A stretch of DNA of 64,000 bases from Nitrospirota bacterium (GCA_963699545.1 CAVOUE010000011.1:11494-75493); one strand, 5' to 3'; shown: positions 6,102 to 63,413, counted from the stretch's first letter. A program made the numbers and translations. The notes: a model not told the origin generated them from the letters alone.

Positions 6102-6130
6102 AGCTTACCAGAACCATTTTGTTTTGTCAA
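6102..6130 (-). promoter_or_regulatory. sigma70 promoter of the str/S10 operon
   Basis: Minus strand TTGACA-17 nt-TAAGCT upstream of rpsL. Confidence 0.65.
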
Positions 6131-6436: not shown

Positions 6437-7381
6437 CTACGGGCCGGTGCTGCTGATTGATGCCGCAGTGAACATGCCCGTACTGAGATAGCGGTCGCCG
6501 CGGTCAGGGAATATCACCACAACTTTCTTGCCTTTCCCGAGTCTCTTGGCAACTTTCATCGCAGCCCACATGGCCGCGCCCGAAGAGACGCCTGCGAGGA
6601 TACCTTCCCTGAGGGCAAGCTGCCTCATCGTGTCGATCGCGTCATCATCGGTAACGGGGATCACTTCATCATAGATCCTCGTGTTCAGCACTCCCGGATA
6701 AAAACCGGCGCCTATGCCGGCGATCTTGTGGGATCCCGGTTCTCCGCCGGAGAGGATAGCAGAACCCTGGGGTTCCACCGCACCGATCCATACAGAGGTG
6801 CGCCTTTCTCTCAGGGTTTCTCCGACACCCGTTATTGTCCCCCCTGTACCCACACCGGCCACAAAGGCATCGGGCACATCCCCCAAAGAACTGATAATCT
6901 CCAGTGCGGTAGTATGTCGGTGAGCTGCGGGATTTGCAGGGTTCTCGAACTGCAGGGGCATGAAATAGTCTGGATTCCTCTTGTAAATCTCCTCCGCCCT
7001 CTCCACTGCACCCAGCATCCCTCTCTCACCCGCGGTGAGGACAAGTTCAGCCCCATACGCCTGAAGGATGTTCCTTCTCTCCAGGGACATCCCCTCGGAC
7101 ATGGTGAGTATCAACCGGTACCCCTTCACCGCCGAAACCATGGCAAGGCCTATTCCTGTATTGCCGCTGGTAGGCTCAACAATGGTGCCCCCGGGTCGAA
7201 GCTTTCCCTCTTTCTCGGCCGTTGTGATCATGGAAAGGGCTATTCTGTCCTTCACAGAACCACCGGGATTGTGTCCTTCAAGCTTTGTCCACACCTCAGC
7301 GTCATCCGCAGAGCAGAGCTTATTGATCCTTACCAGAGGTGTGTTGCCGATAAGGCTCAAAACATCCTTATGAATGTTCAA
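6437..7381 (-). CDS. cysK: Cysteine synthase A
   Basis: LIGNTPLV..KLEGHNPGGSVKDRIA (PLP Lys), EPTSGNTGIGLA, GVGTGGT, DRYLST. Confidence 0.93.
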   Translation of the reverse strand: MNIHKDVLSLIGNTPLVRINKLCSADDAEVWTKLEGHNPGGSVKDRIALSMITTAEKEGKLRPGGTIVEPTSGNTGIGLAMVSAVKGYRLILTMSEGMSLERRNILQAYGAELVLTAGERGMLGAVERAEEIYKRNPDYFMPLQFENPANPAAHRHTTALEIISSLGDVPDAFVAGVGTGGTITGVGETLRERRTSVWIGAVEPQGSAILSGGEPGSHKIAGIGAGFYPGVLNTRIYDEVIPVTDDDAIDTMRQLALREGILAGVSSGAAMWAAMKVAKRLGKGKKVVVIFPDRGDRYLSTGMFTAASISSTGP

Positions 7382-7661
7382 GAAACCTCCATTGAACCTC
7401 TCTCATCTCCAGATGAAATTATATCACAGAGTCATGGGAAGGAATGATGAGAGGGGGAATCATGTGGGTTGACAGACGGGGAGCAGAGAAAACAGAAACC
7501 GGTGCTCGCACGTTTCCGGGGCAGGACATTCCAGAAGAGGTCTCCGGGGTCCGGCGCCTCAACGCTCGCCACCACTGCAAGAAGAGCCATATCTGTTTCA
7601 GCCAGCCTCCGGGAAAAGACGCACTATTGAAAACGGCTCAGGATAATCATACAATATCCTC

Positions 7662-9268
7662 ATGGAGAAAGAACTCTTCACGGAGGATATAAAAGCGGTT
7701 CTCAAAGATACCTTCAGGGAGTTGAAGGATGAGGTTTCCCTTGAGGTCTTTACCCAGAAAGGAATGAATGACGACTTCAATGGGATCGCTGCAGACCTCG
7801 TAAGGGCGATATCAGAACTGACCGACAAGATCAAACCTCACTTTTACAGCATCGGTGATGAAACGTCGAGAAGCCGGGGGTCTCCAGGTCACCCACCATC
7901 CTTATCGCGCCGGACAAATACTCTGTCCGTTACACAGGCGCACCGGTGGGAGAGGAAGGCCGCTCCTTCATCATGGCCCTGCTCATGGTATCCACAGGGA
8001 AGACCTTTGTCTCTGATGATTCGCGGCAAAGGCTGAAGAGGCTGAAAGAGAAGCGGCATGTGAGGGTCTTTGTGAGTCCCACATGTCCTTACTGCCCCCA
8101 GCAGGTGCTGTATGCCATCTCAGCTGCCGTTGAAAGAAAGGATCTGGTATCGGCAGAGGTCGTGGAGATTTATGAGAACAGAGACCTTGCCGAAAGACTT
8201 GGGGCTATGTCTGTGCCCAAGACCTTTGTGGGCGAAACCCTTACCGCTTCCGGTCTTCAGCCTGAGGAGCATTTCATGGAGTCCCTCATCGAAGGCAGTC
8301 CGGTGGAGTATGTGAAGCCGGCAGGAAGGGAGGCACTGAAGGATTATGATGTGGTGATCATAGGCGGCGGCCCCGCGGGATTGACCGCTGCCCTCTATGC
8401 GGAACGGAGCGGTCTGAAGAGCATCATTTTCGAGAAGGCAAGCGTGGGAGGACAGATCGCCATCACCCCCATCGTTGAGAACTACCCGGGATTTACCAGC
8501 ATTGCGGGAAGAACCCTTGTGGACCTCATAGCGAGGCAGGCCATGGAATATACGCTCATTCTTCAGGGAGTAAATGTGACCGACATAAAGAAGAAGAACG
8601 GAGGCTTTGCGGTAACCACCGGACAGGGGGTTTACACCGCTAAGGTCATAATCATTGCCTCAGGGGCAGACAGCAAGAGCCTGAACTCTGCGGGCGAGAA
8701 GAGGCTTTCGGGAAGGGGTGTCAGTTCCTGCGCCACCTGTGACGGCTACTTGTTCAAAGATGGCAAAGATGTGATCGTCGTGGGAGGAGGAAACAGCGCG
8801 CTGACTGATGCCCTCTATCTCGACAGCCTCGGAGCCCACGTGACCCTCGTGCACAGGAGAGATGCCTTCAGGGCCGAAGAGCGGCTCCAGCAGAGCGTGT
8901 TCCAGAGGAATATCCCGGTCCTCTGGAACAGCCGCATCACGGAAATCCTCGGGACCAGGGTGGTGGAAAAGGTCAGGATAGAGGACCTCAAGACCGGGAA
9001 GTCCAGAGATATCAAGGCCGATGCAGTTTTTATCGCCATAGGATACGAACCGAACAACGAAATAGCAAAAAAACTCGGGCTGGAGATGGACAGTGAAGGG
9101 TATATAAAGGTGGATGACAAGATGAGGACTTCGATGCCCCTGGTATATGCGGCGGGCGACATAACGGGAGGGCTCAAGCAGATCGTCGTAGCCGTATCCC
9201 AGGGGTCAGTGGCTTCACTCTCTGCCTTTGAAGACATTGCAAATCCCTATTGGAAAGGACACCGTTAG
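7662..9268 (+). CDS. AhpF-like fusion: N-terminal thioredoxin-fold disulfide oxidoreductase plus thioredoxin reductase (frameshift near 7878)
   Basis: FVSPTCPYCP, GGGPAG, CATCDG, GGGNSA, HRRD, AAGD motifs; N-terminal part in an adjacent frame. Confidence 0.85.
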
Positions 9269-50758: not shown

Positions 50759-51427
50759 TCATTTATTTTCAGAAGGCGGGGCCATGTGCCTGATTATCTT
50801 CCCTTCAACAAAGTAGATCACCATTTCAGCGATATTGGTGGCGTGGTCTGCGATGCGTTCCAGGTACTTTGAAATATAAGTGATCCTTGTTGCACGTGAC
50901 ACCGTATGCGGGTCCTGGATCATAAAGAAGAGCAGTTCATTGAAGACCTGAAGGTTGAGCTGATCGACCTCGTCATCCCTCTTTATCACATCCATCGCAA
51001 GCTTTGCATCTCCCCGGACAAGGGCATCAAGGGAGTCTTTCACCATTCCCCTTGCTATTTCAGCCATCCTTGGTATATCTATATACGGCTTCAGCATTGG
51101 CTCGTCGTTAAGCTCTATGGCCCTTTCCGCAATATCAACCGCAAGGTCTCCCATCCTTTCGATGTCCGTAGTGATCTTCATGGCGGTCGTGATGAACCGG
51201 AGGTCTCCCGCCTTTGGTTGTCTCAAAGCAATGAGCCGGATAGACTCCTCGTCTATCTCAACATCGAGTGTATTTATGAGATGGTCATTTTCAATGATCC
51301 TCTGCGCAAGGCCATTGTCCCTGTCCAAGAGGGCCTGTATGGAAGCCTTGATCGCATCTTCCACGAGGGACCCCATTTTGAGAAGTTTTCCCTTTAAATG
51401 CTGCAGTTCATCATCAAAGATTGACAT
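50759..51427 (-). CDS. phoU: Phosphate signalling protein PhoU
   Basis: ALRQPKAGDLR, DIERMGD, YLERIADHATNIAE. Confidence 0.96.
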   Translation of the reverse strand: MSIFDDELQHLKGKLLKMGSLVEDAIKASIQALLDRDNGLAQRIIENDHLINTLDVEIDEESIRLIALRQPKAGDLRFITTAMKITTDIERMGDLAVDIAERAIELNDEPMLKPYIDIPRMAEIARGMVKDSLDALVRGDAKLAMDVIKRDDEVDQLNLQVFNELLFFMIQDPHTVSRATRITYISKYLERIADHATNIAEMVIYFVEGKIIRHMAPPSENK

Positions 51428-52191
51428 TATCCAAACCTCCCCGTGATATATTCTTCAGTGAGCTTTTCAGAGGGGGTAGTAAAGATCTTGTCGGTCCTCC
51501 CAAATTCTACCAGCTCACCGAGCATCATGAAGCCTGTCCAATCAGATATCCTTGCCGCCTGCTGCATATTATGTGTGACGATGATAATACTCACACTGTT
51601 TTTTAGATCGACAATAAGCTCCTCAATCTTTGCCGTGGATATTGGGTCAAGGGCCGAAGTAGGCTCATCAAAGAGCAGGACTTCGGGTTCCACCGCCAGC
51701 GCCCTCGCAATGACAAGCCTCTGCTGCTGGCCACCGGAAAGTTCGTAGGCACTCATATTCAGCTTGTCCTTCACTTCATCCCAGAGCGCAGCATTCCTGA
51801 TCGCCTTTTCCACCTTCTCTGACAAATCTGCCCTCTTCTTGATCCCTTTCAATCTCAGGCCATATGCAATATTGTCGAATATGGTCATGGGAAAAGGGGT
51901 CGGCTTTTGGAACACCATGCCTATATTGCTCCGAAGACTTATCAGATCTGTGCCATTGGAAAGAATGTTCCTGTCCTGAAAAATGATTTCTCCCTCATAC
52001 CGGTTTCTGGGATACAGGTCATGCATCCTGTTAAAGCACCTGAGAAGTGTGGTCTTTCCGCAGCCTGAAGGACCAATCAGGGCCGTGACCGCACTTTTGT
52101 ATGCGTGCATGTTTATCTGTTTAAGCGCGTGAACATTCCCCGCATAGTAAAAGTTCAGATCCTTTATCTCGATTTCCTTCTTTTCTGTCAC
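51427..52191 (-). CDS. pstB: Phosphate ABC transporter ATPase
   Basis: [41 protein letters not shown]. Confidence 0.96.
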
Positions 52192-53030
52192 TATTTGTAC
52201 CTCCACTTTATTATAAGCCTCCCAAGGATAGTGATGGCAAGAACGACCAGGGTAATAATAAGAGATGCGGCCCATGCCTGTGCGTGCCAGTCATCATAGG
52301 GCCCCATGGCGTACTGGAATATGCTCGCCGTCAGAGAGGCCATGGACCTGTTCATATCTAGAGAGAAATACGCGTTATTGAATGATGTGAAGAGGAGCGG
52401 CGCGGTCTCCCCCGCAACCCTCGCAATGGAGAGCAGGATGCCTGTGAGAATACCGGTAGCAGCCCCCCGGTAGACTACCTGAATGATCACTTTGTAATAG
52501 GGAGCGCCCAATGCAAAAGCCGCCTCCCTCAAGGTCCAGGGGACAAGGGTGAGCATATCCTCCGTCGTTCTTAAGACCACAGGGATCATGATGATTGCGA
52601 GGGCAACTGAGCCGGCCCATCCGTTAAAGTGTCCTACCGGTCGCACCAATATCGCGTACACGAATGTTCCTATCACTATAGAGGGAACGCTCACCATGAT
52701 ATCCGCAAGAATGCTTATCACCCGCGATATCCTCGTTCCCCTTGCATATTCGGCAAGGAAGGTCCCCCCCAGAACTCCAATGGGTACCCCGATAAAAGTG
52801 GCAAAGAATGTTATCAGCAGCTGTCCCATGAAGGCGTTCCTTAATCCGCCGCCCGTAACGCCGGCAGGCGTGGGGTCATTCAGAAAAAGACTGATGTTCA
52901 ATGCGCCAATGCCGTGAATAAGGACGTCGCTCAGGATAAAGATGAGCCAGAACAATCCAAAACCTGCTGCAAGGGTGCTCAGGACAAGGGCCGTCAGGCT
53001 TTCGAGTTTCCTTTTCCTTTCCAGATTCAT
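52191..53030 (-). CDS. pstA: Phosphate ABC transporter permease PstA
   Basis: [31 protein letters not shown]. Confidence 0.95.
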
Positions 53031-53968
53031 CGAGAATATCTCCTCTCGGCCTTGAGGAGGAAAAACTTCGCGATGGCCAGAACAATAAAACTCAACACAA
53101 AGAGCACAAGGGCGAGATAAAAGAGGGAAGAGAGATACATATCAGTGTCTGCCTCGGTAAATTCATTGGCAAGGCTAACGGTGATTGTGGCAGCGGCCTG
53201 AAAAAGAGAGGTGGTTATCTGATGGTTATTCCCGAGGACAAAGGCCACAGCCATGGTCTCACCGAGCGCCCTTCCAAGGGAGAGGGCAATCCCCCCAAAA
53301 ACCCCCAGCTTCGAATAGGGGAGAATCACGTCCTTCACCACTTCCCATTGCGTGGTGCCGATGGCATAGGCAGATTCTTTTACCACTGCGGGAGTGAGAT
53401 TAAAGGCATCCCTGGAAATGCTCGCGGTAAAGGGGATAATCATGATGCTCAAAATAACGCTTGCAGTAAAGATATCTATCCCCATAGGTGTGCCCTGAAA
53501 TAAGATCCCGAGCAGGGGGAGTTTCCCCAGACTCTTCTGGAGCGCAGGCTCAATGTAGCGGGACATGAGCGGCGCAAGCGTAAAGAGGCCCCACATGCCA
53601 TAGATAATACTGGGTATAGCAGCAAGAAGTTCTATAGCAATCCCGATAGGGCCTTTCAGGAAATTGGGGGCTATCTCGGTGACGAATATGGCGATCCCGA
53701 TGGCGGTCGGCACCGCGATAATGAGGGCGAGAAGGGTCGTGATCACTGTTCCGTAAATTGTGGTTGCTGCGCCAAAGGATTCCTTCACCGGATTCCAGTC
53801 AGTAGAGGTGAGAAAATTAACAACTCCAAATTTGCTTACGGCAAGGGAAGACTCGCGCAGCAAGACCGCAAAAATCCCCATAACAAGAAGAATGACAGTC
53901 AATGATGCGAGAGCCGTAATCAGGGAAAAAGAGAAATCAACCGCATTTTTTTTATAGATTATGGGCAA
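53027..53968 (-). CDS. pstC: Phosphate ABC transporter permease PstC
   Basis: ELLAAIPSIIYGMWG, LGRALGETMAV. Confidence 0.95.
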   Translation of the reverse strand: MPIIYKKNAVDFSFSLITALASLTVILLVMGIFAVLLRESSLAVSKFGVVNFLTSTDWNPVKESFGAATTIYGTVITTLLALIIAVPTAIGIAIFVTEIAPNFLKGPIGIAIELLAAIPSIIYGMWGLFTLAPLMSRYIEPALQKSLGKLPLLGILFQGTPMGIDIFTASVILSIMIIPFTASISRDAFNLTPAVVKESAYAIGTTQWEVVKDVILPYSKLGVFGGIALSLGRALGETMAVAFVLGNNHQITTSLFQAAATITVSLANEFTEADTDMYLSSLFYLALVLFVLSFIVLAIAKFFLLKAERRYSR

Positions 53969-54049
53969 TTATATTGCTCCTTCCGTTGCCTTGTCAGTCA
54001 TTGCGCCGTTCTCCGCACACTCTTGCCTTAAGGTTGTATTGAAAGAGTG

Positions 54050-54088
54050 TTAAAGGGCCAGGTATATGATACAGACCTGGCCCTTTAA
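54050..54088. terminator. pstS-pstC intergenic stem-loop (partial terminator or mRNA stabiliser)
   Basis: TTAAAGGGCCAGGT / ACCTGGCCCTTTAA 14-bp perfect stem. Confidence 0.65.
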
Positions 54089-54112
54089 TTTCAAATTACC
54101 GTGAAGATAGAG

Positions 54113-55123
54113 CTAGTAAAGACCGTTCGCTTTCCAGTATGCCATGACCTTTTCTTTCAGCGACTTCGGCAGAGGCACGTAGATGAGTTCCTTGGCCTTA
54201 TTATCGCCGTTCTTGAACGCCCAGTCATAAAATTTTACGACCTTCATATTTGAATCCTTCTTCTCTTTTGCAAGGAGAATAAAGGTCGCTCCCGCAATGG
54301 GCCAGGCGTTCTTTCCGGGGGTGTTGTTCAGCCAGACATAAAAATCCTTCTTTGCATCGAAATCACCCGAGTCGGCTGCATCTTCGAAGGCCTCAAAACT
54401 GGGCGTCACAAAATTCCCAGCCTTATTCTTAAGCTGTGTATGTACCAGCTTATTCTGCTTTGCATAGGCAAATTCCACATACCCGACGGAGTTCGCGGTC
54501 TGCTTCACATAATTGGCAACCCCTTCGTTCCCCTTACCGCCAATCCCCGCAGGCCACTGAACAGACTTGCCTTCACCAACCTTGCTCTTGAAATCTGCAC
54601 ATGTTTCGCTCAGGTAATTGGTAAAGATTGCGGTCGTCCCTGACCCGTCCGACCTGTGGACCACGGTCATTTCATTGTGGGGCAACTTTACTTTTGGGTT
54701 GTTCTTCTTGAGCATCGCGTCATCCCAGAACTTGATCTCTCCGAGGTATATCTTGCAAAGCGTCTGCGGATCAAGCTTGAGTTCGCCCTCCTTCACCCCC
54801 TGGATGTTTACCACAGGAACGACTCCGCCAATCACCGCAGGGAACTGGATAAGTTTGTCGCCTGCGAGCTTATCGGGCTTCAAAGGGTCATCAGATGCGC
54901 CGAAGTCAACCGTCCTCTCGGTGATCTGCCTCTGCCCGCCGCCGGAACCTATGGACTGATAATTGAGTTTTACCCCTGTTGTCTTGTTATAATCGTATGC
55001 CCAGGCAGAATATACAGGATAGGGGAATGTTGCGCCCGCACCATTTATCGTTTCCTCAGCACCTGCCAAGGAAAATGACAAGGCTATCGCCAATACCACC
55101 ATTACGCCGAAAATATTCTTCAT
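54113..55123 (-). CDS. pstS: Phosphate ABC transporter substrate-binding protein
   Basis: GAGATFPYP, YQSIGSGGG, DFGASD, HRSDGSGTT, GKGNEGV. Confidence 0.97.
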   Translation of the reverse strand: MKNIFGVMVVLAIALSFSLAGAEETINGAGATFPYPVYSAWAYDYNKTTGVKLNYQSIGSGGGQRQITERTVDFGASDDPLKPDKLAGDKLIQFPAVIGGVVPVVNIQGVKEGELKLDPQTLCKIYLGEIKFWDDAMLKKNNPKVKLPHNEMTVVHRSDGSGTTAIFTNYLSETCADFKSKVGEGKSVQWPAGIGGKGNEGVANYVKQTANSVGYVEFAYAKQNKLVHTQLKNKAGNFVTPSFEAFEDAADSGDFDAKKDFYVWLNNTPGKNAWPIAGATFILLAKEKKDSNMKVVKFYDWAFKNGDNKAKELIYVPLPKSLKEKVMAYWKANGLY

Positions 55124-55176
55124 CCATCTCTCCTTTCTCGTATGCAATTGTTTCGTTATAATATAAAGCTCTGATT

Positions 55177-55215
55177 GTTACAATTGTGTTACAGTTCTAT
55201 TAAATTTCAGTTACA
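55177..55215 (-). promoter_or_regulatory. Pho box array of the pstS promoter
   Basis: GTTACA/ATTAAA units at 55177, 55188, 55199, 55210 (11-bp period); minus strand CTGTAAC-acaa-TTGTAAC then AT-rich -10. Confidence 0.8.
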
Positions 55216-55244
55216 GGGCTTAAATTAATCTTTCATTCTTTTCT

Positions 55245-55379
55245 TCACCTCCCTTTTTCTTTCTCACCAAAGACCCTTTGGATGAGGTGAAAAACAAAGA
55301 GATTCGGCCTGCCTCGGAGAAGGCTGATCACTGCAACTACAGAAAGAATCAGGCTTAGAACCAGTAAAACTACACTCAC
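55245..55379 (-). CDS. Putative 44-aa membrane micro-protein (GTG start, possibly leaderless)
   Basis: VSVVLLVLSLILSVVAVISLLRGRPNLFVFHLIQRVFGEKEKGR; starts just after a Pho-box promoter. Confidence 0.4.
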   Translation of the reverse strand: MSVVLLVLSLILSVVAVISLLRGRPNLFVFHLIQRVFGEKEKGR

Positions 55380-55401: not shown

Positions 55402-55429
55402 GTTACAGCGATATTACGGAGGTGTTACA
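55402..55429 (-). promoter_or_regulatory. Pho-box-like promoter
   Basis: GTTACA 55402, ATTACG 55413, GTTACA 55424; -10 TATTCT on the minus strand. Confidence 0.65.
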
Positions 55430-55658
55430 TTTCAAGGTCATGCATATCTCTGCCTGAAAGACCGTGCATATTCGGGCAGAACGTCCGGCCCGAGGTGACG
55501 ATGATGAGCATGTTTTGAATCCTTTCTTTATCATGGGATATCACAACCGAACAGTCCATTGCCAGCCAGGAGAAACGTGCGCATACATCTTCAAGAACCG
55601 AGACGGACCCTGGCCGGATATTGGAAAGCATTGCGATATTCATCAGAACGGGATACAT
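55425..55658 (-). CDS. Hypothetical protein
   Basis: 77-aa ORF starting 1 nt after the stop of the upstream micro-protein; no recognisable motif. Confidence 0.3.
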   Translation of the reverse strand: MYPVLMNIAMLSNIRPGSVSVLEDVCARFSWLAMDCSVVISHDKERIQNMLIIVTSGRTFCPNMHGLSGRDMHDLEM

Positions 55659-55659: not shown

Positions 55660-55851
55660 TCATGCGTACCCTTGCACCTGAACCTCGTCAGTTGTTTCTC
55701 TTTTTGCTCTGACGTCCTTCACCCGAAAGGGGCATTTCTTGTGGTCTTTCGTCAGGCAGTACTCCTCGAATTGGAAAACGCTCGGCACGTATACTCTCTC
55801 CCCGATCGTGCATGTTGCCACCACCCACCGATCCAAATGCGGGCATTTCAT
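55660..55851 (-). CDS. 4-Cys micro-protein, copy 1
   Basis: C-x10-C-x17-C-x7-CPF; ATGA coupling to the upstream gene. Confidence 0.75.
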   Translation of the reverse strand: MKCPHLDRWVVATCTIGERVYVPSVFQFEEYCLTKDHKKCPFRVKDVRAKRETTDEVQVQGYA

Positions 55852-56039
55852 GGCTTCCCCCATAGATTAACGAATGATTTCGGCCGCACGATATTCCGGA
55901 CCTCTGCCTGAGAGTTCCCCCATACGATGAGAGGACATTTCTCCTGTTTTCCCCTGCAAAAGAGGCTGCCGAACCGGGGAGTAACAGGGATACCCCTCAG
56001 ACACCTCAAGTCTTCAGATACATAATCACGACATGTCAT
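55848..56039 (-). CDS. 4-Cys micro-protein, copy 2 (shorter spacing)
   Basis: C-x9-C-x14-C-x6-CPL; SD AAGGAGG; ATGA coupling. Confidence 0.65.
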   Translation of the reverse strand: MTCRDYVSEDLRCLRGIPVTPRFGSLFCRGKQEKCPLIVWGNSQAEVRNIVRPKSFVNLWGKP

Positions 56040-56242
56040 TTCCGCCTCCTTCTTAAGGCTTTTGCCAGGAATATCGGGCAATAGTCATAGTCATCGGTGT
56101 TACAAAACTTCGTTCTCACCGTCGGCGTTGGTAATAATGAAGAAAGTGAGGCATTGCAGACATCGGATATATCCGAGTAGGGACAACGCAATTCAAGTTC
56201 ATGGGGCAGCTGTGCCGTCAGCGCCTTATCCATGCTGTTCAT
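56036..56242 (-). CDS. 4-Cys micro-protein, copy 3
   Basis: C-x8-C-x17-C-x7-CPIF; SD AAGGAGG. Confidence 0.75.
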   Translation of the reverse strand: MNSMDKALTAQLPHELELRCPYSDISDVCNASLSSLLPTPTVRTKFCNTDDYDYCPIFLAKALRRRRK

Positions 56243-56510
56243 TACAGCCTCCTTTATTGAATATGCTTTCTATCGTGACGCTGGATGCCATGTCCCTCAG
56301 ATAGGCGTCAATGTCTATCTGGCCGGGGTCGTACTTTATCAAGAGGCTTCCCGTTAAGGGGTTGGGGCGAATGTCCTCTATGCCGCACGGAACGGGAATG
56401 CCTGATAATCCTTTGAGAACACTTAAGGAAAGTCCCTTGATGGAGGGTACCTCAAGCCTGATGCGTCCTGGAACATGGTGTACTATCCTGTACTGAATCA
56501 TGGTGGTCAT
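56226..56510 (-). CDS. HMA2-like domain protein
   Basis: IVHHVPGRIRL..GIEDIRPNPLTGSLLIKYDP. Confidence 0.75.
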   Translation of the reverse strand: MTTMIQYRIVHHVPGRIRLEVPSIKGLSLSVLKGLSGIPVPCGIEDIRPNPLTGSLLIKYDPGQIDIDAYLRDMASSVTIESIFNKGGCNEQHG

Positions 56511-56559
56511 CCTCTGTCTGATTTCTTTGTCTGATCTTGCCATAGTAAACCACAGCACT

Positions 56560-56587
56560 GTTACGCACTTATGAAGACATCGTTACA
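56560..56587 (-). promoter_or_regulatory. Pho-box-like promoter
   Basis: GTTACG 56560, ATGAAG 56571, GTTACA 56582; -10 TACTAT. Confidence 0.6.
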
Positions 56588-56603
56588 TTTCAATGTAATC
56601 TGT

Positions 56604-57146
56604 TCAGACGATAACCACTGAGTCGTCGCATCCATACGGATTCTGTTCATACTTATCGGCACACCAATCATTCTCCCAGCGATCGCCATCAATGAGATAC
56701 CGGAACCTGTATTCTTTCCCTGCCGGCAGTTCAAGGGTTGCTTCGAAGTCGCCGCTTCTAAGCTTCTTCATCGGCGATGCTTCGCTATCCCATTTGTTGA
56801 AATCTCCTACAACCGTAACCTTTCTGGCCTGACCCACCGCATCTTTCGGCAGTCTGAACGTTATCCTGCAAGAGAGACTGGATGCCGGGTACTCCTCTTG
56901 AACGCCTCCGATTTCCTCCGTTGAATTTTTCCGGACCGTGAGCGGCCTCGCCGTCTCTTCTGCAGCCTGTCCCTTTCCTGCTCCCTCTTGCGTACCGTGC
57001 CTCTCCGTCACTTCAGCGCGAGAACTCAGTTTAGATGTCTTGGCCTTCATGGGCGCTTTCGATCCTTTCTTCGCCGTCTTCTCACCAGGGACCACAGACT
57101 CCGGTGCTTTCTTCCTTACTGCTCCTTTGGATTCTCTCATCGTCAT
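56604..57146 (-). CDS. CBM48 (isoamylase early set / glycogen-binding) protein with Lys-rich N-terminus
   Basis: VTVVGDFNKWD..M..F.ATLEL..EYRFRYLIDGDRWENDWCAD. Confidence 0.82.
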   Translation of the reverse strand: MTMRESKGAVRKKAPESVVPGEKTAKKGSKAPMKAKTSKLSSRAEVTERHGTQEGAGKGQAAEETARPLTVRKNSTEEIGGVQEEYPASSLSCRITFRLPKDAVGQARKVTVVGDFNKWDSEASPMKKLRSGDFEATLELPAGKEYRFRYLIDGDRWENDWCADKYEQNPYGCDDSVVIV

Positions 57147-57183
57147 ATCACTCCCTCCTCAAGCATTCTTTCTCCTTCCCCTA

Positions 57184-57438
57184 TCATTTTGGACCGGGAA
57201 ACGAGTTAACAAACCTGATCGTGAAATCACTGAACGCGTCGACCATCTGGATTCTGTAGTCCGGAAACTCATCCACAACCTGCCAAAGACCCTGGCCATT
57301 CGGCAAGGACGCTACTTCCTGCACGTCCAAATCCGCCATCGAATCGACTACTTCCACACGGTAATGAGGGAACCTGTCCACATACTGAATCCTGCCATAC
57401 ACTTTGCTTAGATCAGGTTTCCCCACTGTGCTGGTCAT
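57184..57438 (-). CDS. Small 11-residue repeat protein
   Basis: Six V(D/N/A)xxxD-type repeats (IQYVDRFPH, VEVVDSMAD, WQVVDEFPD, IQMVDAFSD, IRFVNSFPG); SD AAGGAG. Confidence 0.75.
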   Translation of the reverse strand: MTSTVGKPDLSKVYGRIQYVDRFPHYRVEVVDSMADLDVQEVASLPNGQGLWQVVDEFPDYRIQMVDAFSDFTIRFVNSFPGPK

Positions 57439-57513
57439 CTCCTTAATCTCATCACACCTTTTGGTCCGATGATAACGCCCGCCTTGACCGCTCCTACCAC
57501 CTTTCCAGCCCCT

Positions 57514-58020
57514 TTATCTGCCGCAATGCATATAGTCGCTGTCCTTCCTTGAATTGTGACAGGCTATGCATGCATCAGCCTTGCCTGATTCCAGCACATA
57601 CCCGGAATTGGCAGCATACTTGGCCCAAAACCAGTCGCCGGCCTCAGGGTTATACCCCTTTATCTTGTACATCACGGTGCAGGAGTCAAGTTTTTTGTCT
57701 GCCGTATAATTCTCACTGACGATTATTGAACCATCCGCCATTCCCTCCGGTTTCTTGATTGATTTTAAGGCTGCATCGTTCAGATAGATGGTCATGAACG
57801 AGCCGTGAGGTCTTTCACTCGCCAGGAACTCGCCTGTTCCCGGGCAACGGTTCCACTTCTCATAATAGGGCGCCGGCTTGGTTATATATACGTAGAGTTT
57901 TCCAGCGTCATCACCTGAGACAACGGGTGCAGTTCCCCCCAATTCATGAATAGCATATGCGACATATCCACAACCAAGCACGACACCCACAACAAGAACC
58001 GCCATTACTAATTTCCTCAT
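57514..58020 (-). CDS. Cytochrome P460-family c-type cytochrome
   Basis: Signal peptide, PHG..IYLN, DGSIIVSENY, VMYK..GYNPEAGDWFWAKY, C-terminal CIACH. Confidence 0.82.
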   Translation of the reverse strand: MRKLVMAVLVVGVVLGCGYVAYAIHELGGTAPVVSGDDAGKLYVYITKPAPYYEKWNRCPGTGEFLASERPHGSFMTIYLNDAALKSIKKPEGMADGSIIVSENYTADKKLDSCTVMYKIKGYNPEAGDWFWAKYAANSGYVLESGKADACIACHNSRKDSDYMHCGR

Positions 58021-58103
58021 GGTTATCTCCCTTCCTGCTGAGTATTTCAGCCGCTCATGCCGGTAAAAGGCTGGTGACTGTAGTTTCATTTTAGCGTTCA
58101 ATT

Positions 58104-58153
58104 GTTACAGGAATATGTTCGAACTATTAAAGGAGCGTTAAATTGTGGTCAAA
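58104..58153 (-). promoter_or_regulatory. Pho-box-like promoter
   Basis: GTTACA 58104, ATTAAA 58126, GTTAAA 58137, GTCAAA 58148 in 11-bp phase; -10 TAAAAT 10 nt after the last box. Confidence 0.65.
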
Positions 58154-58249
58154 ATCATCGATCCCGAGATGGTCAACACTTCCGGAAGCCTTTGGGACTC
58201 AAGTGTTGCGGATCCCACCGGGCCTGAGTAACTGAAGGGTGAAACCCCG

Positions 58250-58996
58250 TCAGACGAGATGTGCTGAAAGCCACGATGCGACCTGCCGGTAGTCTTCCGC
58301 GCCATTCGACCTTGGAGCAAAAAGTATCACCGGCTTTCCACGTCCGGGAGCTTCTGTCAGCGCCACATTCTCACGCACTGCAGGAGAAACTTTATGAGGG
58401 AAGAGCTTTTCCAGTTGTTCCATCATTGCCTGATGGACATTGCGTCTGGGATGAGCCCGGCACGGTATTACTGCGCCCAGCTTGAGGCCAGGATGATGCC
58501 TCCCCACTGATGATATTGTCTCCAGCATTTGAGTAAGACCGCTCATCGCCAGGAAGCTCGCTTCAACCGGAATGATCACATGATTGCTCGCCCACAGGGC
58601 AGTCATGGTGAGGATCCCCAGGCTGGGAGGACAATCGATGATCACTCTACTCCAGTCAAAACCATGCATCTGTTTCAGGCAACGGAGCAGCAGTTCATTT
58701 CCTATTGTTCCCGTAAATCTCTGTCTCGCAGCCACAAAGTGAGGCCCGGACGGAACCAGATCCACACCATTGGCCTCAGTGTGCAGCACAGGCAATGCAA
58801 CTGTCTTTTGCAACGCCTGTAAGAGGTCATTCCCATCACTCTGGATACCAAAAGACATGCTCGCACTGCCCTGAGGATCGAGATCGACAAGAAGGACCTT
58901 TTCCCCTGCCTCTCCCCAGCATGCAGCAATATTCACCGCCGATGTTGTCTTCCCGACACCGCCCTTGAGGTTTGCAACCGAGATTATCTGGACCAA
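58250..58996 (-). CDS. Orphan ParA/Soj-family ATPase
   Basis: NLKGGVGKTT, VDLDPQG, IDCPPSLG, RENVALTEAP; no parB nearby. Confidence 0.88.
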   Translation of the reverse strand: MVQIISVANLKGGVGKTTSAVNIAACWGEAGEKVLLVDLDPQGSASMSFGIQSDGNDLLQALQKTVALPVLHTEANGVDLVPSGPHFVAARQRFTGTIGNELLLRCLKQMHGFDWSRVIIDCPPSLGILTMTALWASNHVIIPVEASFLAMSGLTQMLETISSVGRHHPGLKLGAVIPCRAHPRRNVHQAMMEQLEKLFPHKVSPAVRENVALTEAPGRGKPVILFAPRSNGAEDYRQVASWLSAHLV

Positions 58997-59211
58997 TACG
59001 CGCCCTTCCTTATCGAATCCCTTACATTGCGGCTGACGAGGACGACCAGGTAATCTTTGATCCTGGCTCCTTCCCTGATGGCGCAATAGAAGGTCTCATA
59101 AACGCTTCTTATCTCCTCCTCCGGCATGCCAAGGTCCTTCGCAAGCATCCGGATAGCTTGAGAATGTTGCCTCAGTTCCGTATCATTTTCGTATGGACAC
59201 GCAGTTGCCAT
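58984..59211 (-). CDS. Small helical protein, DUF3562-like
   Basis: AI..LA..G....V.......L..GARIKDYL.VL..R pattern; SD GAGG. Confidence 0.6.
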   Translation of the reverse strand: MATACPYENDTELRQHSQAIRMLAKDLGMPEEEIRSVYETFYCAIREGARIKDYLVVLVSRNVRDSIRKGAYWSR

Positions 59212-59536
59212 GATTTCCTCGTGCCTTTTTTACCGTTCTCCTCTTTGGGCATAAGAGTTCTCTTTTCCCATGCTTCTCACCAGGCCCTGTCGGTTGCCTC
59301 GATTCAAGTGTATCATCAAAAGCAGGAGCACGCGCCTTTTTTTTCATTACTTGCCTATAGTTTTATGCGATGTGCCGCCACTCCGAACAGACGGGGAACA
59401 TAGCAGCGGAATATGCCAGGAATGGTATATGATCAGAATATATCTATGGACAGATCGTGGTGGATATGGATCCTTCTCCCACAAAGGTCACTTATGCTGC
59501 GGACATTCGACAGGGAGCATTCATACGGATATCTCT

Positions 59537-59704
59537 CTATCCCAAAAGTCGCCTGTCCCTCACAATGCACGATCTTCTGCACAATGCCGCCTCTTTCTTG
59601 GCCTGCTTTTTCAGCTCCGTGGCAACTGCATTAATCCCTATGACCGTGAAAAGTATACGGGCAACAATGAGTATTGCTTTCTTCTTAAGGTTCATCTTGA
59701 ACAT
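59537..59704 (-). CDS. Putative 55-aa micro-protein with hydrophobic segment (not in ORF track)
   Basis: MFKMNLKKKAILIVARILFTVIGINAVATELKKQAKKEAALCRRSCIVRDRRLLG. Confidence 0.4.
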   Translation of the reverse strand: MFKMNLKKKAILIVARILFTVIGINAVATELKKQAKKEAALCRRSCIVRDRRLLG

Positions 59705-59730
59705 GCCACGTTACCTTAATGAGGGTCCTG

Positions 59731-59898
59731 TCAAGTCTTTGGGAACTCTTTCTGGTAACAGCTCATGCAACTCTCATCATTCGAGGGAATGCACTTGTGC
59801 CCTCTGTAACAATGACAGAATGCCTTCTTGTTATTGATGCGTTTGAAAACCCACATTTCATATCGCTTTTGCTGTTCTGTTAAGGCTTTGAGTGCCAT
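59731..59898 (-). CDS. 55-aa Cys-rich micro-protein (not in ORF track)
   Basis: MALKALTEQQKRYEMWVFKRINNKKAFCHCYRGHKCIPSNDESCMSCYQKEFPKT; SD GGAGG; Pho-like promoter upstream. Confidence 0.65.
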   Translation of the reverse strand: MALKALTEQQKRYEMWVFKRINNKKAFCHCYRGHKCIPSNDESCMSCYQKEFPKT

Positions 59899-59948
59899 TT
59901 CTTTCGCCTCCGTTTACGATGTACTGGTTTCCAGTGTATATCAGGGAC

Positions 59949-59988
59949 GTTGCAACGTAATGAAGATACCTGTTAAGAGTCTGTGAAA
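59949..59988 (-). promoter_or_regulatory. Pho-box-like promoter (degenerate)
   Basis: GTTGCA 59949, ATGAAG 59960, GTTAAG 59972, GTGAAA 59983; -10 TACACT 10 nt after the last box. Confidence 0.5.
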
Positions 59989-60065
59989 TATAGAGCCAAA
60001 AAAAAGGATAAGACATAAAAGATTATAACGGGAGAGATAGGAGGAGGAAGCCGCCAGACTCCCCG

Positions 60066-60437
60066 CTATATCAGGAGTGTGATCAATGACAGCGCCGACC
60101 CTTCGAGTGCGCTCTCCACAAAGGTCCCGAAGATTGCCTTTCCGATGAGGCTGCCTGCCCGCGAAGCGGCCGTCTGGATATACTGGTCATTTGTCAGCGC
60201 TTTTGAAGTGTCAAAGTACCCTTTTCTCTGGAGAGTATTGACAATATCCTTGTCGTCCGCAGTCTTGGGGTTGTAGTTGATAAGTATACTCCCGGTCGTG
60301 AGATTTATGTCCACCGTTGCGATGCCATGTATTGTGCTCAAGATCTTTCTGATCTCATCCGCAACTTCTTTATTCCTCTTGACAACAGGGGTTTTCACCC
60401 TTAGCCTTCCCGGCACATTGTGGACGTAATAACTCAT
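60066..60437 (-). CDS. HMA2-like domain protein
   Basis: YVHNVPGRLRVK..GIATVDINLTTGSILINYNP. Confidence 0.8.
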   Translation of the reverse strand: MSYYVHNVPGRLRVKTPVVKRNKEVADEIRKILSTIHGIATVDINLTTGSILINYNPKTADDKDIVNTLQRKGYFDTSKALTNDQYIQTAASRAGSLIGKAIFGTFVESALEGSALSLITLLI

Positions 60438-60438
60438 G

Positions 60439-60765
60439 TTATTCCTCCTTCATTACGTATTTCTTAAATGTCCTGCATGCCGGATAGCCCGAGCATCGGA
60501 AACGGATGATGTAACCTTCTATCTTATAGAGGTTCATGGGCTTCCCGCATTGCGGACAGACCGGCTTGTCTTTCACGGTAGCCCTCTTGGGACTTCCCGT
60601 AAATTGCATGCCGCACATCATGCAGAGAAACCTTTGCTTTCCTGCCCCTGTCCTTCCATACTTATAGGCAGCATCAGAACCGCAGGAAGGACATTTGATC
60701 TCCGCATCTGTAATTACCGTTTGCGTCATCAATCCGTTCTCGTGACCCAAAGAGTGTTCAGTCAC
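60439..60765 (-). CDS. Double zinc-ribbon protein (IS1 InsA-like ribbon plus topoisomerase-type C4 finger)
   Basis: CPSCGS..YKYGRT..GKQRFLCMMCG then CPQCGKPM..RCSGYPACR. Confidence 0.75.
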   Translation of the reverse strand: MTEHSLGHENGLMTQTVITDAEIKCPSCGSDAAYKYGRTGAGKQRFLCMMCGMQFTGSPKRATVKDKPVCPQCGKPMNLYKIEGYIIRFRCSGYPACRTFKKYVMKEE

Positions 60766-60789
60766 GCCTCATAAGAGAGACTGAGCATT

Positions 60790-61005
60790 CTAAAGTGTCC
60801 CTAAGACAGAATCAGGGCCTGATATCGAGAGGGCCACGGTTCGCAGTAAGCGCACATAATATGAACATGCCTCATGGTGCCTGCCCATACAGAGCCGTAT
60901 GTCCGCATCTTCCATGAACCGGACGAACGTGCTGGCCACGCTGCACTGAGCCCCCTCAGGACTTCCCTTGAGAAATTGACAGACCGCTCCACTCTTCAGG
61001 TGCAT
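60790..61005 (-). CDS. 4-Cys micro-protein, copy 4
   Basis: C-x11-C-x17-C-x7-CSYY; SD AGGAG. Confidence 0.72.
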   Translation of the reverse strand: MHLKSGAVCQFLKGSPEGAQCSVASTFVRFMEDADIRLCMGRHHEACSYYVRLLRTVALSISGPDSVLGTL

Positions 61006-61037
61006 GTTTATTCTCCTGAATGAAGCATACACCTGTT

Positions 61038-61090
61038 CCGTTACAGTTTTGTTACAACCATGTTAAATGTTTGTAACAAAACTGTAACGG
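61038..61090. promoter_or_regulatory. Pho boxes arranged as a perfect 20-bp inverted repeat
   Basis: CCGTTACAGTTTTGTTACAA / TTGTAACAAAACTGTAACGG; -10 TATGCT 10 nt downstream on the minus strand. Confidence 0.75.
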
Positions 61091-61154
61091 CGGCCCACGA
61101 TGCTTTTGGGCCGCCTCAGGATGTTTCTAACGGAGCCGGTAATGCGCGGCTAAC

Positions 61155-61322
61155 CTATACAACTCCTTCAAAGGCAATGCCGGCCGAGACGAAGAATTGG
61201 GCGATAAAGACCGGACATTTCTCCCATTCTCCCCGTTGGCAGGTCCTCTTGTCCGCACAGTGTATTCTGTCCGGCTCGATCCCAGCGAAGTCACAGATCT
61301 GATCCTTCAAACTTGGACACAT
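61155..61322 (-). CDS. 4-Cys micro-protein, copy 5
   Basis: C-x7-C-x17-C-x7-CPVF (one extra Cys within x17); SD AAGGAGGT. Confidence 0.75.
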   Translation of the reverse strand: MCPSLKDQICDFAGIEPDRIHCADKRTCQRGEWEKCPVFIAQFFVSAGIAFEGVV

Positions 61323-61395
61323 TTCGTTACCTCCTTTCAAAAGAGGAATTTATCCTTCCGCCTTCCTCATGTTCAATCAGTGCCCAGCAGCCAAT

Positions 61396-61776
61396 TCAAA
61401 CCTCCAGGTACCGTGCAACCTTTTTTCTCAAATCAAAAATATCTCCCTTGGCGATGTACCCCTTGACACCGTGTTCAGCCACGGCCCGCCGCAGACTGTC
61501 CTCATCGTTGGATGAATAGAAGACGATGGGGATGTCCCTGGTTTTTCCGTTCGAAAGGAGCACTTTCGAAAGCCTTCCCCCCGAGAGGCCGGGCATGTTC
61601 ATATCAAGCAAAATAAGGTCCGGCTGCACCTCTCTCACCACATTGGTGACCCCGAAGCCGAAATGATGCATGCGCACTTCATATCCCATCTCCTCCAGGA
61701 GATCCTTCGCGGTGAGAAGATGTTTCATGTCGTCATCCACAACGAGTATCATTTTCTTCTCTCTCTTGCGTTCCAT
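61396..61776 (-). CDS. Single-domain response regulator (receiver only)
   Basis: ILVVDDD, PDLILLDMNMPG, YSS, YIAK. Confidence 0.9.
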   Translation of the reverse strand: MERKREKKMILVVDDDMKHLLTAKDLLEEMGYEVRMHHFGFGVTNVVREVQPDLILLDMNMPGLSGGRLSKVLLSNGKTRDIPIVFYSSNDEDSLRRAVAEHGVKGYIAKGDIFDLRKKVARYLEV

Positions 61777-61781: not shown

Positions 61782-62963
61782 TTATCTTCCTTTTGTCGTA
61801 TGCTCCACCGGTAAAAAGACCGAGAACTTCGTTCCCTCGCCGAACGTGCTCGAGACAGTAATCTCACCTCCCAAGATGCGCAGCAGGTTCTGGGTGATGG
61901 TCAATCCGAGCCCCGTCCCTTCATGCCTTTTGGTCATTGTGTCCTCCAGCTGGCTGAAGGCGAGGAACAATTTGTCCATCTCGTTTTCCCTTATTCCCGC
62001 ACCCGTGTCGGTCACCTCAATCTTGACCCTTTTCCCTTCGCTGCCGAGAGATATGACAATCTTGCCCCTTTCGGTAAATTTCGCTGCGTTGCTCATGAGG
62101 TTGGTCAATATCTGTCGCACCTTAACGGGATCGGACACCATGAATACAGGCTCAATATGCGAGACCACCTCTACATTCACAGGCTTGTTTCCAACGAGGA
62201 CACGGGTCGTCTCACCCACTTCATTGAGGATCGTCAATACATTGAACCGCTCGACGATGACCTCCATCTTGCCCGCTTCGATCTTTGAAAGATCGAGAAT
62301 GTTCGTGACGATGGCCCTGAGGTTGGTCGCGCTGGACATGAGGAGCGCGAGGCGGTCTTTCAGCTGCTCCATGTATCCCTTTTCTGATGACAGTTGTATA
62401 AGCTCTGCCAATCCTATAATGGCGTTCACAGGGGATCTGAGTTCATGGGTGACATGCGCAATAAACTGGGACTTCATCTGGCTCATCCTCTCGAGCTCTT
62501 TCGCTTTCGCATGGACCACTTCCTTCTGAATAATACTGTTCGCGAGCACGCTGCTTTGCTGTATGACCATCTGCTTCACCGAAAGAAGGCCGGTATATGC
62601 GCCGGAGTCTTTCACCACGATGATGTCATCATAAATATCCTGCGGAGCTCGCTCCAGTGCCTTGTCTATGGCCACGTCGAGTCTTTCATCCTCGTGCATC
62701 ACCAGCGGGGCGGTATCAGCTATGCTGATGATCGGCTTCCTCCCGTAAAGCTCAAATCCGTACCTCCTTAATACGGTGAAGAAGAACTTCGGTCTGGTCA
62801 CGATTCCCACGGGGCTTTGACCTTCGAGGAGCGCAATGGCATCGAGTTCCGTAGACCTGAAGAACCTGTCTACCACCTCTTTGACGAGGATATCCGGCTG
62901 CAGGCTCTCGCGTGATGTAATGAGTTCCCCCACTCGGGGCGATTCGACGCAAAGGGAATCCAT
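61782..62963 (-). CDS. Cytoplasmic histidine kinase with N-terminal tandem CBS domains
   Basis: CBS-like PVGIVTR / YDDIIVV..YTGLLSV; THELRSP, NAAKFT, DTGAGI, GTGLGL; no TM segment. Confidence 0.85.
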   Translation of the reverse strand: MDSLCVESPRVGELITSRESLQPDILVKEVVDRFFRSTELDAIALLEGQSPVGIVTRPKFFFTVLRRYGFELYGRKPIISIADTAPLVMHEDERLDVAIDKALERAPQDIYDDIIVVKDSGAYTGLLSVKQMVIQQSSVLANSIIQKEVVHAKAKELERMSQMKSQFIAHVTHELRSPVNAIIGLAELIQLSSEKGYMEQLKDRLALLMSSATNLRAIVTNILDLSKIEAGKMEVIVERFNVLTILNEVGETTRVLVGNKPVNVEVVSHIEPVFMVSDPVKVRQILTNLMSNAAKFTERGKIVISLGSEGKRVKIEVTDTGAGIRENEMDKLFLAFSQLEDTMTKRHEGTGLGLTITQNLLRILGGEITVSSTFGEGTKFSVFLPVEHTTKGR

Positions 62964-62977
62964 TGCTAGTCTTCCTT

Positions 62978-63154
62978 TCAGACAATCCGGCATGCGGCGG
63001 TCTCAGGTGCATTGCCGTTGAATTCAGTAATCTTGTTCAAATACTCGCTACTCATTTTGATCTCTTCCACAATGTGGATATCACTCAGATCGCCTTCTTT
63101 CCCGTAGATGCGGATGACGTACGCATCATCAGATACATCAATAATCGCTTTCAT
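62978..63154 (-). CDS. 58-aa hypothetical protein (not in ORF track)
   Basis: MKAIIDVSDDAYVIRIYGKEGDLSDIHIVEEIK...; SD AAGGAGGT; first gene after a Pho-like promoter. Confidence 0.65.
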   Translation of the reverse strand: MKAIIDVSDDAYVIRIYGKEGDLSDIHIVEEIKMSSEYLNKITEFNGNAPETAACRIV

Positions 63155-63369: not shown

Positions 63370-63413
63370 AATAATCTCACTGTAATATCAGTGTAATAAT
63401 TCTGTGGTACAAC
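63370..63413 (+). promoter_or_regulatory. Pho-box-like promoter of dedA
   Basis: TGTAAT at 63381 and 63392 (11-bp period), TACAAC 10 nt later. Confidence 0.6.

Follow-up and report, generated by a model that had tools for sequence, protein, structure and literature searches.

What are the five very small open reading frames (ORFs) that lie just upstream of the phosphate-uptake genes of a Nitrospirota bacterium, and do they form, as a first-pass annotation of the sequence proposed, a diversified family of small four-cysteine modules linking phosphate limitation to metal or redox state? The question is raised by a 64,000-nucleotide (nt) stretch of this genome (GCA_963699545.1, CAVOUE010000011.1:11494-75493), hereafter the window, whose minus strand carries the five mini-protein ORFs, named here W1 to W5 and assigned to subtypes A (W1), B (W3), C (W4), D (W5) and E (W2). 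Genomes are coded G, loci L, and contigs C3 and C5, with G000 denoting the window's own genome of 3.04 Mb. The five tiny ORFs are real genes under purifying selection, and in our profile and database comparisons the mini-proteins are a new, widespread and unnamed family, with a link to phosphate that is supported by genomic context.

All five minus-strand ORFs are present in the translations with the positions and Cys spacings first claimed for them (Table 1), each at an inner ATG start of its enclosing frame. A purine-rich Shine-Dalgarno (SD)-like stretch lies 5–12 nt before each chosen ATG, strong and AAGGAGG-like for W2, W3 and W5, AGGAG for W4 and GGGGGAA for W1, with ATGA overlaps at the W3/W2 and W2/W1 junctions, so that the ribosome-binding sites and coupling originally described are both found. 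Orthologues of all five occur in the same gene order in G001, a genome of the same genus, at 57–73% identity (72% for W5), with ratios of non-synonymous to synonymous substitution (dN/dS) of 0.24 for W2, 0.32 for W3, 0.17 for W4 and 0.12 for W5; this range of 0.12–0.32 covers W2 to W5, the W1 pair being left out as its synonymous sites are saturated. Members in other relatives likewise begin with ATG and carry GGAGG-like sites upstream in almost every case. The loose pattern C-x6-12-C-x17-C-x7-C occurs 33 times among the 47,838 stop-to-stop frames of at least 35 amino acids (aa) in the whole genome, nine of these occurrences being family members, four of them in the 5.7-kb stretch that holds W1 to W5, against a background of 24/47,838. 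Two further matches to the pattern, a MerR-family regulator in L004 and a 71-aa ORF in L005, are absent from the nine profile matches of G000 and are not counted as members. The MerR-family regulator (contig C3:145001-155000, 4708-5100, plus strand) fits the pattern through its Cys-rich C-terminal tail, and is possibly a cluster-binding sensor of unrelated origin. That the five ORFs arose by chance or are non-coding DNA is ruled out by the SD sites, the conservation, the dN/dS ratios, the paralogues and a pattern count beyond chance. Precursors of ribosomally synthesised and post-translationally modified peptides are also ruled out, with the whole length of the proteins conserved within each subtype and no maturase-like gene present in the 50–64 kb region of the window or in the compact clusters of relatives described below.

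The four-Cys skeleton extends well beyond the window. Five extra paralogues are found elsewhere in G000: a second cluster on contig C3 holds a W1-like copy and, 11 kb off, a W5-like and a W4-like copy with zinc-ribbon and HMA_2 genes behind them, as is the case in the window; one W3-like copy lies behind a 59-aa zinc-ribbon ORF, and a further W1-like copy lies on contig C5. A 36-sequence alignment (A4) that includes W1, W3, W4 and W5 has exactly four invariant columns, all of them Cys, with these four proteins matching the profile at E-values of 1e-17 to 1e-23. The common module reads CP-x7-11-C-x17-C-x7-CP, the third position ahead of the final Cys being aromatic or His, and the core C-x17-C-x7-C is present in 147 of 164 retrieved proteins shorter than 200 aa. 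None of the five window proteins has a CxxC pair, and no two of their Cys are nearer than 6 residues. Each subtype has marks of its own, namely CPHL ... YVPS ... CPFF in subtype A (W1), the commonest in the metagenomic search (106/164 proteins classed), ASLSS ... EDYDNCPIF and a basic tail in subtype B (W3), the tail being conserved in the subtype consensus, DADIRLC in subtype C (W4), and AGIEPE in subtype D (W5). Judged by its alignment, W2 represents a fifth subtype, also conserved, in which the spacers are shorter; seven other loci have an orthologue of it in the position between B and A, and across the eight sequences the first three Cys never vary and the fourth is retained in seven. The subtype E profile matches the other subtypes weakly (hhalign probability 24%, E = 8e-4), in an alignment that pairs all four Cys. 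The proposal of one diversified family is supported, with W1, W3, W4 and W5 aligned with four invariant Cys across 36 sequences and W2 tied weakly to the rest.

The first-pass annotation recognised no named family, and neither did our searches. Pfam and NCBIfam gave no family at E ≤ 1 for W1, W2, W3 and W5, and only sub-threshold TPR and FPL matches for W4, whilst a sequence search of the PDB with the family profile reached a best E of 0.79. The names of 20 clusters looked up were 'hypothetical protein' or none, and the nearest ESM Atlas clusters are 'hypothetical protein' entries without a Pfam family, commonest in Nitrospirota. AlphaFold2, supplied with 94 sequences, predicts subtype A to be a small beta-hairpin followed by three helices, with a mean predicted local distance difference test (pLDDT) score of 68; with this small and uncertain model Foldseek returned no PDB match at E ≤ 0.001, and VIA-align a best Z of 3.2 against 48,161 chains. 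The model of subtype B (pLDDT 56) was too poor for a fold search, and a complex prediction of subtype B with subtype A scored 0.00 without control runs and bears neither way. No such proteins were found in the literature on the Pho regulon, on small Cys-rich proteins or on pst of the Thermodesulfovibrionales and Nitrospirota, and nothing on four-Cys mini-proteins in that on DUF3562, the family of one neighbouring gene.

Three known kinds of Cys-bearing protein were considered and rejected. Zinc ribbons and rubredoxin-like fingers require two CxxC (or CPxC) knuckles, of which W1 to W5 have none, and the searches were able to detect zinc ribbons, because a neighbouring 108-aa protein matched zinc-ribbon models. 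With 4Fe-4S ferredoxins and high-potential iron-sulphur proteins there is no Pfam or NCBIfam match, the CxxCxxCxxxCP motif is absent, and only the 'CP' after the final Cys is in common. The WhiB-like (Wbl) proteins (Pfam PF02467) gave no profile match, and the spacings of x7-11, x17 and x7 differ from theirs.

Homologues conserving the Cys spacing are widespread among the Nitrospirota. A first profile built from nine paralogues matched 26 of 41 related genomes, with up to 15 matches per genome, nearly all of them open frames of 55–120 aa. In an even sampling of the phylum, 75 of 201 Nitrospirota genomes match at E ≤ 1e-4, the rate being high in families f6 (11/13), f17 (10/12) and f19 (34/44), and nil or nearly so in f10 (0/10), f24 (0/28), f26 (0/12) and f23 (1/28). 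Among the sampled genomes with family members, G023, G033 and G102 are closed, each as a single contig. In a second phylum, that of a 'Deltaproteobacteria bacterium' metagenome-assembled genome (MAG), 18/201 genomes match. A HMMER search of 1.84 billion representatives of clusters at 50% identity with the 36-sequence profile found 898 at E ≤ 1e-3, 55 at E ≤ 1e-10 and 0 at E ≤ 1e-30; among the 150 matches listed, lengths are 52–124 aa, except for one 1106-aa repeat protein regarded as spurious. Word-based protein searches found W1 itself and one Joint Genome Institute hypothetical protein (81% identity) when queried with W1, and no longer protein when queried with A4, and a related-locus search with W1 alone confirmed no relative.

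Fused forms, which surfaced only in the genome search, show that the module is not confined to mini-proteins. In the second phylum several profile matches lie within frames of 263–326 aa, and the one examined (L095, 1438-2406, plus strand) consists of two tandem four-Cys modules followed by a GcvH-like domain (Pfam GCV_H, 78 bits), with nothing annotated by Pfam on the first 150 residues of the fused proteins. Eight clusters of such proteins, of ~300 aa, were retrieved (P0167-P0174). Their N-terminal module matches the family profile with an hhalign probability of 95.5% (E = 1.5e-8), and keeps the CP...C...C-x7-CP order with a middle spacer of 19–20 residues instead of 17. Because two copies fused to a GcvH-like domain match the family profile, the four-Cys module is, on this comparison, a portable domain, joined there to a carrier-type redox domain; the description of the family as small modules of 55–71 aa thus fits the window, but not the family as a whole. 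These GcvH-like proteins, homologous to the mini-proteins in their N-terminal double module, differ from them in their length and in not being seen next to pst. Their GcvH-like domain lacks the lipoyl-lysine, as read from the alignment.

The tie to phosphate limitation that was first proposed for this locus is upheld by context, through a conserved position upstream of pstSCAB-phoU and through Pho-box-like repeats before subtype C genes. When the window proteins were compared by BLAST with ORFs from 16 relatives (18 stretches in all), ten genomes proved to have mini-protein genes immediately ahead of pstSCAB-phoU (G001, G003, G005, G011, G012, G014, G019, G023, G026 and G040). Co-location with pst, checked across the 26 positive relatives, is found in 14: a copy lies ~4–6 kb from phoU on the same contig in 12 (G000, G001, G003, G004, G005, G010, G011, G014, G019, G026, G038 and G040), and G012 and G023 are added through genes directly before pstS. 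Five other positive relatives are too fragmented to tell (G007, G008, G009, G015 and G017), one has a copy adjoining a pstS-like gene only (G035), and two have weak matches only (G016 and G025). In the phylum sample at least 20 of the 75 positive genomes have a listed match within 10 kb of phoU, a figure obtained by comparing two hit lists by eye with G023 counted through its subtype D gene, and ~2% would be expected for three copies per 3-Mb genome. To our knowledge, no described member of the Pho regulon is a four-Cys mini-protein.

Gene order is conserved as well. In the taxonomic order to which the organism belongs, the conserved arrangement is a small ORF, an optional CBS-like kinase and receiver, D, a Pho box, C, B, E, A, a Pho box and pstSCAB-phoU. 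The most compact cluster, in G005, runs small ORF, D, D, Pho box, C, B, E, A, pstSCAB-phoU, and the order B-E-A ahead of pstS is also present in G003 and G012. In the window the cluster is, from its gene content, split by inserted genes, with the zinc ribbon, two HMA_2, DUF3562, ParA, cytochrome P460-like and CBM48 genes and a gene for an 84-aa protein lying between C and B.

The promoter evidence begins with three heptamers close to CTGTAAC, set at an 11-nt phase on the minus strand upstream of pstS. The motif CTGTAAC-N4-CTGTAAC, derived from this promoter of the window, has 10 sites in the window at up to 3 mismatches, with 2.2 expected, and none of 100 shuffles reaches 10. The E. coli PHO box consists of a pair of 7-nt direct repeats, separated by 4 nt, with the core CTGTCAT (PMC4415409), and the window repeats share that format. 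Like accessory genes of the Pho regulon, the mini-protein genes combine a place directly upstream of pstSCAB-phoU with PHO-box-like repeats before pstS and subtype C. Sites were counted in the window and 49 loci where they had at most 2 mismatches, lay no more than 250 nt ahead of a gene and pointed the same way as it, with a chance rate of 1.9% per upstream window. They precede 9/15 pstS and 7/12 subtype C genes, 3/13 pstC genes (where pstS is divergent), 3/27 subtype B, 2/12 zinc-ribbon and 1/17 subtype D genes, and none of the subtype A (0/32), subtype E (0/8), kinase (0/33), receiver (0/27), HMA_2 (0/27) or pstA, pstB and phoU (0/46) genes. Because the repeat matches the classical format and recurs before subtype C, W4 together with the genes behind it, like the entire C-B-E-A run of the compact clusters, can be taken as credible candidate members of a Pho regulon. 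Two PhoB-like regulators of the OmpR family are encoded elsewhere in the genome, scoring 280 and 279 bits, just under the NCBIfam cut-off of 296.

Two features of these promoter regions may be recorded separately. The repeats at 61040-61088 form a near-perfect inverted pair, the same 18-mer lying on both strands 13 nt apart, an arrangement not usual in PHO boxes that might permit looping or control in both directions. Between the two Pho-box-like repeat sets upstream of pstS lies a 44-aa hydrophobic ORF (55245-55379, minus strand), which may encode a small membrane peptide or be no gene.

A conserved linkage joins the family to a histidine kinase and a receiver-only response regulator. Orthologues of the kinase (64–81% identity) and the receiver, followed by a family gene, are found in 7/7 genomes (G000, G001, G014, G040, G122, G145 and G224), and in the second phylum an unrelated kinase adjoins a family gene in 5/8 loci. 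The association with a CBS kinase that was first put forward is therefore sound as regards the kinase and receiver as constant neighbours, but the CBS match itself falls just under the Pfam cut-off. The receiver scores 51 bits against the PhoB model (cut-off 296), and the pair differs from PhoR-PhoB, since the window receiver is without a DNA-binding domain. The 58-aa ORF just upstream of the kinase, which the first-pass annotation did not include, has orthologues in G001, G122, G026 and G005, with no family name, and in the metagenomic protein P0039 its sequence is joined to a subtype A module, the N-terminal half being without conserved Cys. In L049 (G040) a family member (685-897) lies 19 nt before a gene for an EAL-CBS-GGDEF protein (916-2772, plus strand), which pairs the four-Cys module with a signalling enzyme of another kind.

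Table 1. Features of the window bearing on the mini-protein genes, with positions counted from its first letter.
Feature	Position	Strand	Enclosing frame	Description
pstS-pstC-pstA-pstB-phoU operon	50759-55147	-		All five products above NCBIfam cut-offs; immediately downstream of W1
Pho-box-like repeats before pstS	55177-55216	-		Three heptamers, 11-nt phase
Second Pho-box-like heptamer set, between W1 and pstS	55402-55430	-		2 and 3 mismatches
W1, subtype A	55660-55851	-	55660-55863	63 aa; C-x10-C-x17-C-x7-CPF; final gene before pstS; ORF, SD, profile match
W2, subtype E	55848-56039	-	55848-56081	63 aa; C-x9-C-x14-C-x6-CPL
W3, subtype B	56036-56242	-	56036-56242	68 aa; C-x8-C-x17-C-x7-CPIF; basic C-terminal tail; ORF, SD, profile match
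HMA_2 (CoBaHMA) protein, second	56226-56558	-		Directly upstream of W3; PF19991, 32.7 bits (cut-off 30)
HMA_2 (CoBaHMA) protein	60066-60437	-		PF19991, 53.9 bits (cut-off 30)
Double zinc-ribbon protein	60439-60765	-		108 aa; after W4; Pfam and NCBIfam zinc-ribbon matches
W4, subtype C	60790-61005	-	60790-61032	71 aa; C-x11-C-x17-C-x7-CSYY; ORF, SD, profile match
Pho-box-like repeats between W5 and W4	61040-61068	-		1 mismatch; ends 35 nt upstream of W4 ATG
Inverted copy between W5 and W4	61071-61088	+		1 mismatch
W5, subtype D	61155-61322	-	61155-61340	55 aa; C-x7-C-x17-C-x7-CPVF and one extra Cys; first gene past receiver; profile E 1.2e-20
Receiver-only response regulator	61396-61776	-		126 aa; Response_reg only; no NCBIfam model above cut-off
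Histidine kinase, CBS-like N-terminal part	61782-62993	-		HisKA, HATPase_c; CBS 23.1 bits (Pfam cut-off 24)
Conserved ORF heading cluster	62978-63154	-		58 aa; just upstream of kinase; tblastn: cluster head also in 4 other genomes
Further pattern sites	63380-63397; 16539			Pattern search of window

What, then, might these proteins do? They probably help tune the response to phosphate shortage, a role suggested because in many Nitrospirota the genes lie after the sensor kinase pair and before the operon for phosphate uptake. Zinc sites are as a rule made of CxxC pairs, and 'CP' is typical of the ligands of iron-sulphur (Fe-S) clusters. In the explanation that we favour, the four invariant and widely spaced Cys, two of them before Pro and none in a CxxC pair, would hold one cofactor, an Fe-S cluster being somewhat likelier than zinc on these general grounds, with a little over half of our expectation falling on the former and about a third on the latter. 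A PhoB-type regulator would switch on subtype C and the genes behind it when phosphate is scarce, and the mini-proteins would be small subunits, accessory or output, of signalling proteins, with the receiver-only regulator and the kinase as the first candidate partners because the pair has no output domain of its own. A redox, iron or metal signal would in this way be fed into the control of phosphate uptake. We hold the whole of this explanation, in which the ORFs encode members of a previously unnamed superfamily of cytoplasmic proteins of ~55–75 aa with one four-Cys module each, tentatively, at slightly less than an even chance.

Several observations weigh against this explanation. Among the more distant Nitrospirota, family f19 has most of its members away from pst, either on their own or adjoining DUF3562, CBM48, zinc-ribbon or HMA_2 genes, and the phosphate tie is therefore not a trait of all mini-proteins of this kind; of the 26 positive relatives, four (G022, G029, G031 and G033) also have their copies away from phoU. 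Five of the 12 subtype C genes are without a Pho-box-like site, and at the threshold used no site of their own was found ahead of W3-W2-W1 or of W5, so that Pho control of W1, W2, W3 and W5 in the window is without direct support. The three predicted operons, each said in the first-pass annotation to be headed by a Pho-box-like promoter, are accordingly reduced to pstS and W4, and the role of the Pho box in this phylum is argued from putative sites with a motif taken from the pstS promoter of the window. Cofactor binding and the expression of any member are proposals made from sequence alone, and AlphaFold models with pLDDT scores of 68 and 56 cannot show a metal site.

A bolder form of the favoured explanation, which we consider unlikely, would have the four-Cys module be a new cofactor-binding (probably Fe-S) sensor domain and the five mini-proteins the missing output or input subunits of the CBS-like kinase and receiver, in a so far undescribed branch of phosphate-starvation signalling, specific to the Nitrospirota and some neighbours, that gates Pst uptake by redox or iron status. 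If true, this would be an independently arisen functional counterpart of the actinobacterial Wbl proteins. Those proteins are small, with four invariant Cys, several paralogues and, in some, basic C-terminal tails; they act as accessory subunits of transcription and signalling, and their motif C-xn-C-x2-C-x5-C binds a [4Fe-4S] cluster. The mini-proteins resemble them by analogy in being small and predicted to be cytoplasmic, in their four invariant Cys, in their diverged paralogues and in the basic tail of some, and differ in having no sequence match to them, another Cys spacing and other host phyla, and in a cofactor that is so far a prediction. The general kind, that of small Cys4 accessory proteins with predicted cofactor binding, is a familiar one.

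The zinc-ribbon and HMA_2 genes that recur beside the family suggest another reading, the main rival, in which the mini-proteins would be parts of an intracellular inclusion or cation-handling apparatus together with CoBaHMA, zinc-ribbon, ParA, lysine-rich coiled-coil and P-type ATPase proteins, for example forming or positioning a granule of Ca/Mg-phosphate, polyphosphate or carbonate, with Pho control reflecting the use of stored phosphate. The co-location with HMA2-like proteins first seen in the window recurs for subtypes C and D, with a subtype C gene (usually after D), then zinc-ribbon and HMA_2 genes, forming a module in seven loci (L001, L043, L046, L050, L059, L080 and L081). In L043, L045, L050 and L082 an orthologue of the second HMA_2 protein lies ahead of a subtype B or A gene. 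HMA_2 genes recur next to subtypes C, D, A and B in two phyla, and one follows the family gene in 2/8 loci of the second. The mini-proteins themselves are not HMA-like, with no Pfam match. The closest loci of the HMA_2 neighbour carry the titles of Nitrospirae, Nitrospirota or Thermodesulfovibrionales MAGs. On contig C3 the paralogous cluster includes, besides the module, another HMA_2 protein, a coiled-coil protein rich in lysine and a P-type ATPase whose N-terminal part is an HMA_2 domain, and the ParA, DUF3562 and CBM48 genes of the window lie between its two mini-protein groups. HMA_2 (PF19991) is the Pfam counterpart of the CoBaHMA domain of calcyanin, which marks the intracellular biomineralisation of carbonate (bioRxiv 10.1101/2024.07.07.602159). 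However, the compact clusters of G005, G014, G026 and G040 carry the mini-protein and pst genes neither interrupted nor flanked by any HMA_2, ParA or ATPase gene, subtypes A, B and E seldom adjoin the zinc-ribbon/HMA_2 pair, and the literature found reports no inclusion for these uncultured genomes. We therefore regard an inclusion or cation-handling apparatus as doubtful.

Some of these neighbours have features of their own. The HMA_2-bearing P-type cation ATPase of L001 (G000 contig C3:800001-818000) is read as two ORFs (5428-7074 and 7344-8513, plus strand), suggesting a frameshift, a sequencing error or a pseudogene, and lies beside an HMA_2 protein, MetK and a metallophosphoesterase. The lysine-rich coiled-coil protein, of 116–130 aa with a very basic tail and no Pfam family, recurs by the zinc-ribbon/HMA_2 module at 50–67% identity (L001 12392-12742, minus strand; L051 11115-11504; L059 8132-8515; L067 8152-8535), and could bind a polyanion such as polyphosphate or DNA. 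In the window, a 55-aa ORF with five Cys (59731-59898, minus strand) lies between the HMA_2 and DUF3562 genes; it is not of the four-Cys family, has no Pfam match, and has a counterpart with 69% identity in G003 (L045 18017-18220). The 84-aa ORF (57184-57438, minus strand), between the cytochrome P460-like and CBM48 genes, has an internal repeat of a 'D.FPDYR..VVD'-like unit and no family match.

Less probable still is that the mini-proteins are small DNA- or RNA-binding factors with structural zinc, themselves the transcriptional output of the receiver-only regulator. The basic C-terminal tail kept in subtype B is consistent with such a role, as is a kinase/receiver pair without a DNA-binding output of its own, but the CxxC knuckles typical of zinc fingers and ribbons are absent, neither fold nor sequence matches a nucleic-acid-binding family, and the GcvH-like fusion points instead to redox or carrier chemistry. 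Quite improbable is a role without signalling, as thiol-based buffers or chaperones for a metal or metalloid that rises at low phosphate (arsenic entering through Pst, or cations released from polyphosphate), for although the four invariant Cys, the many paralogues (up to 15 profile matches per genome) and the position in or beside a Pho-controlled transport operon would suit it, its biological rationale being our own, the presence of only four Cys at fixed spacing and of many subtype-specific conserved residues fits a folded cofactor site with specific partners better than bulk buffering, and no arsenic resistance genes were present in the stretches examined, no search aimed at them having been made.

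Small proteins are often missed in annotation or left 'hypothetical', and here a family with at least 898 clusters, found in about one third of sampled Nitrospirota genomes at up to 15 copies each, has had no name, domain model or structure. The alignments suffice for a domain model that would annotate both the mini-protein genes and the N-terminal part of the GcvH-like fusions. Its fixed place between a two-component pair and the high-affinity phosphate transporter, together with a repeat held in common with pstS, offers a testable entry to phosphate sensing in the Nitrospirota, a poorly studied but environmentally important phylum, and if the module binds an Fe-S cluster, it would represent a new cluster-binding motif and a link of iron or redox state to phosphate uptake.

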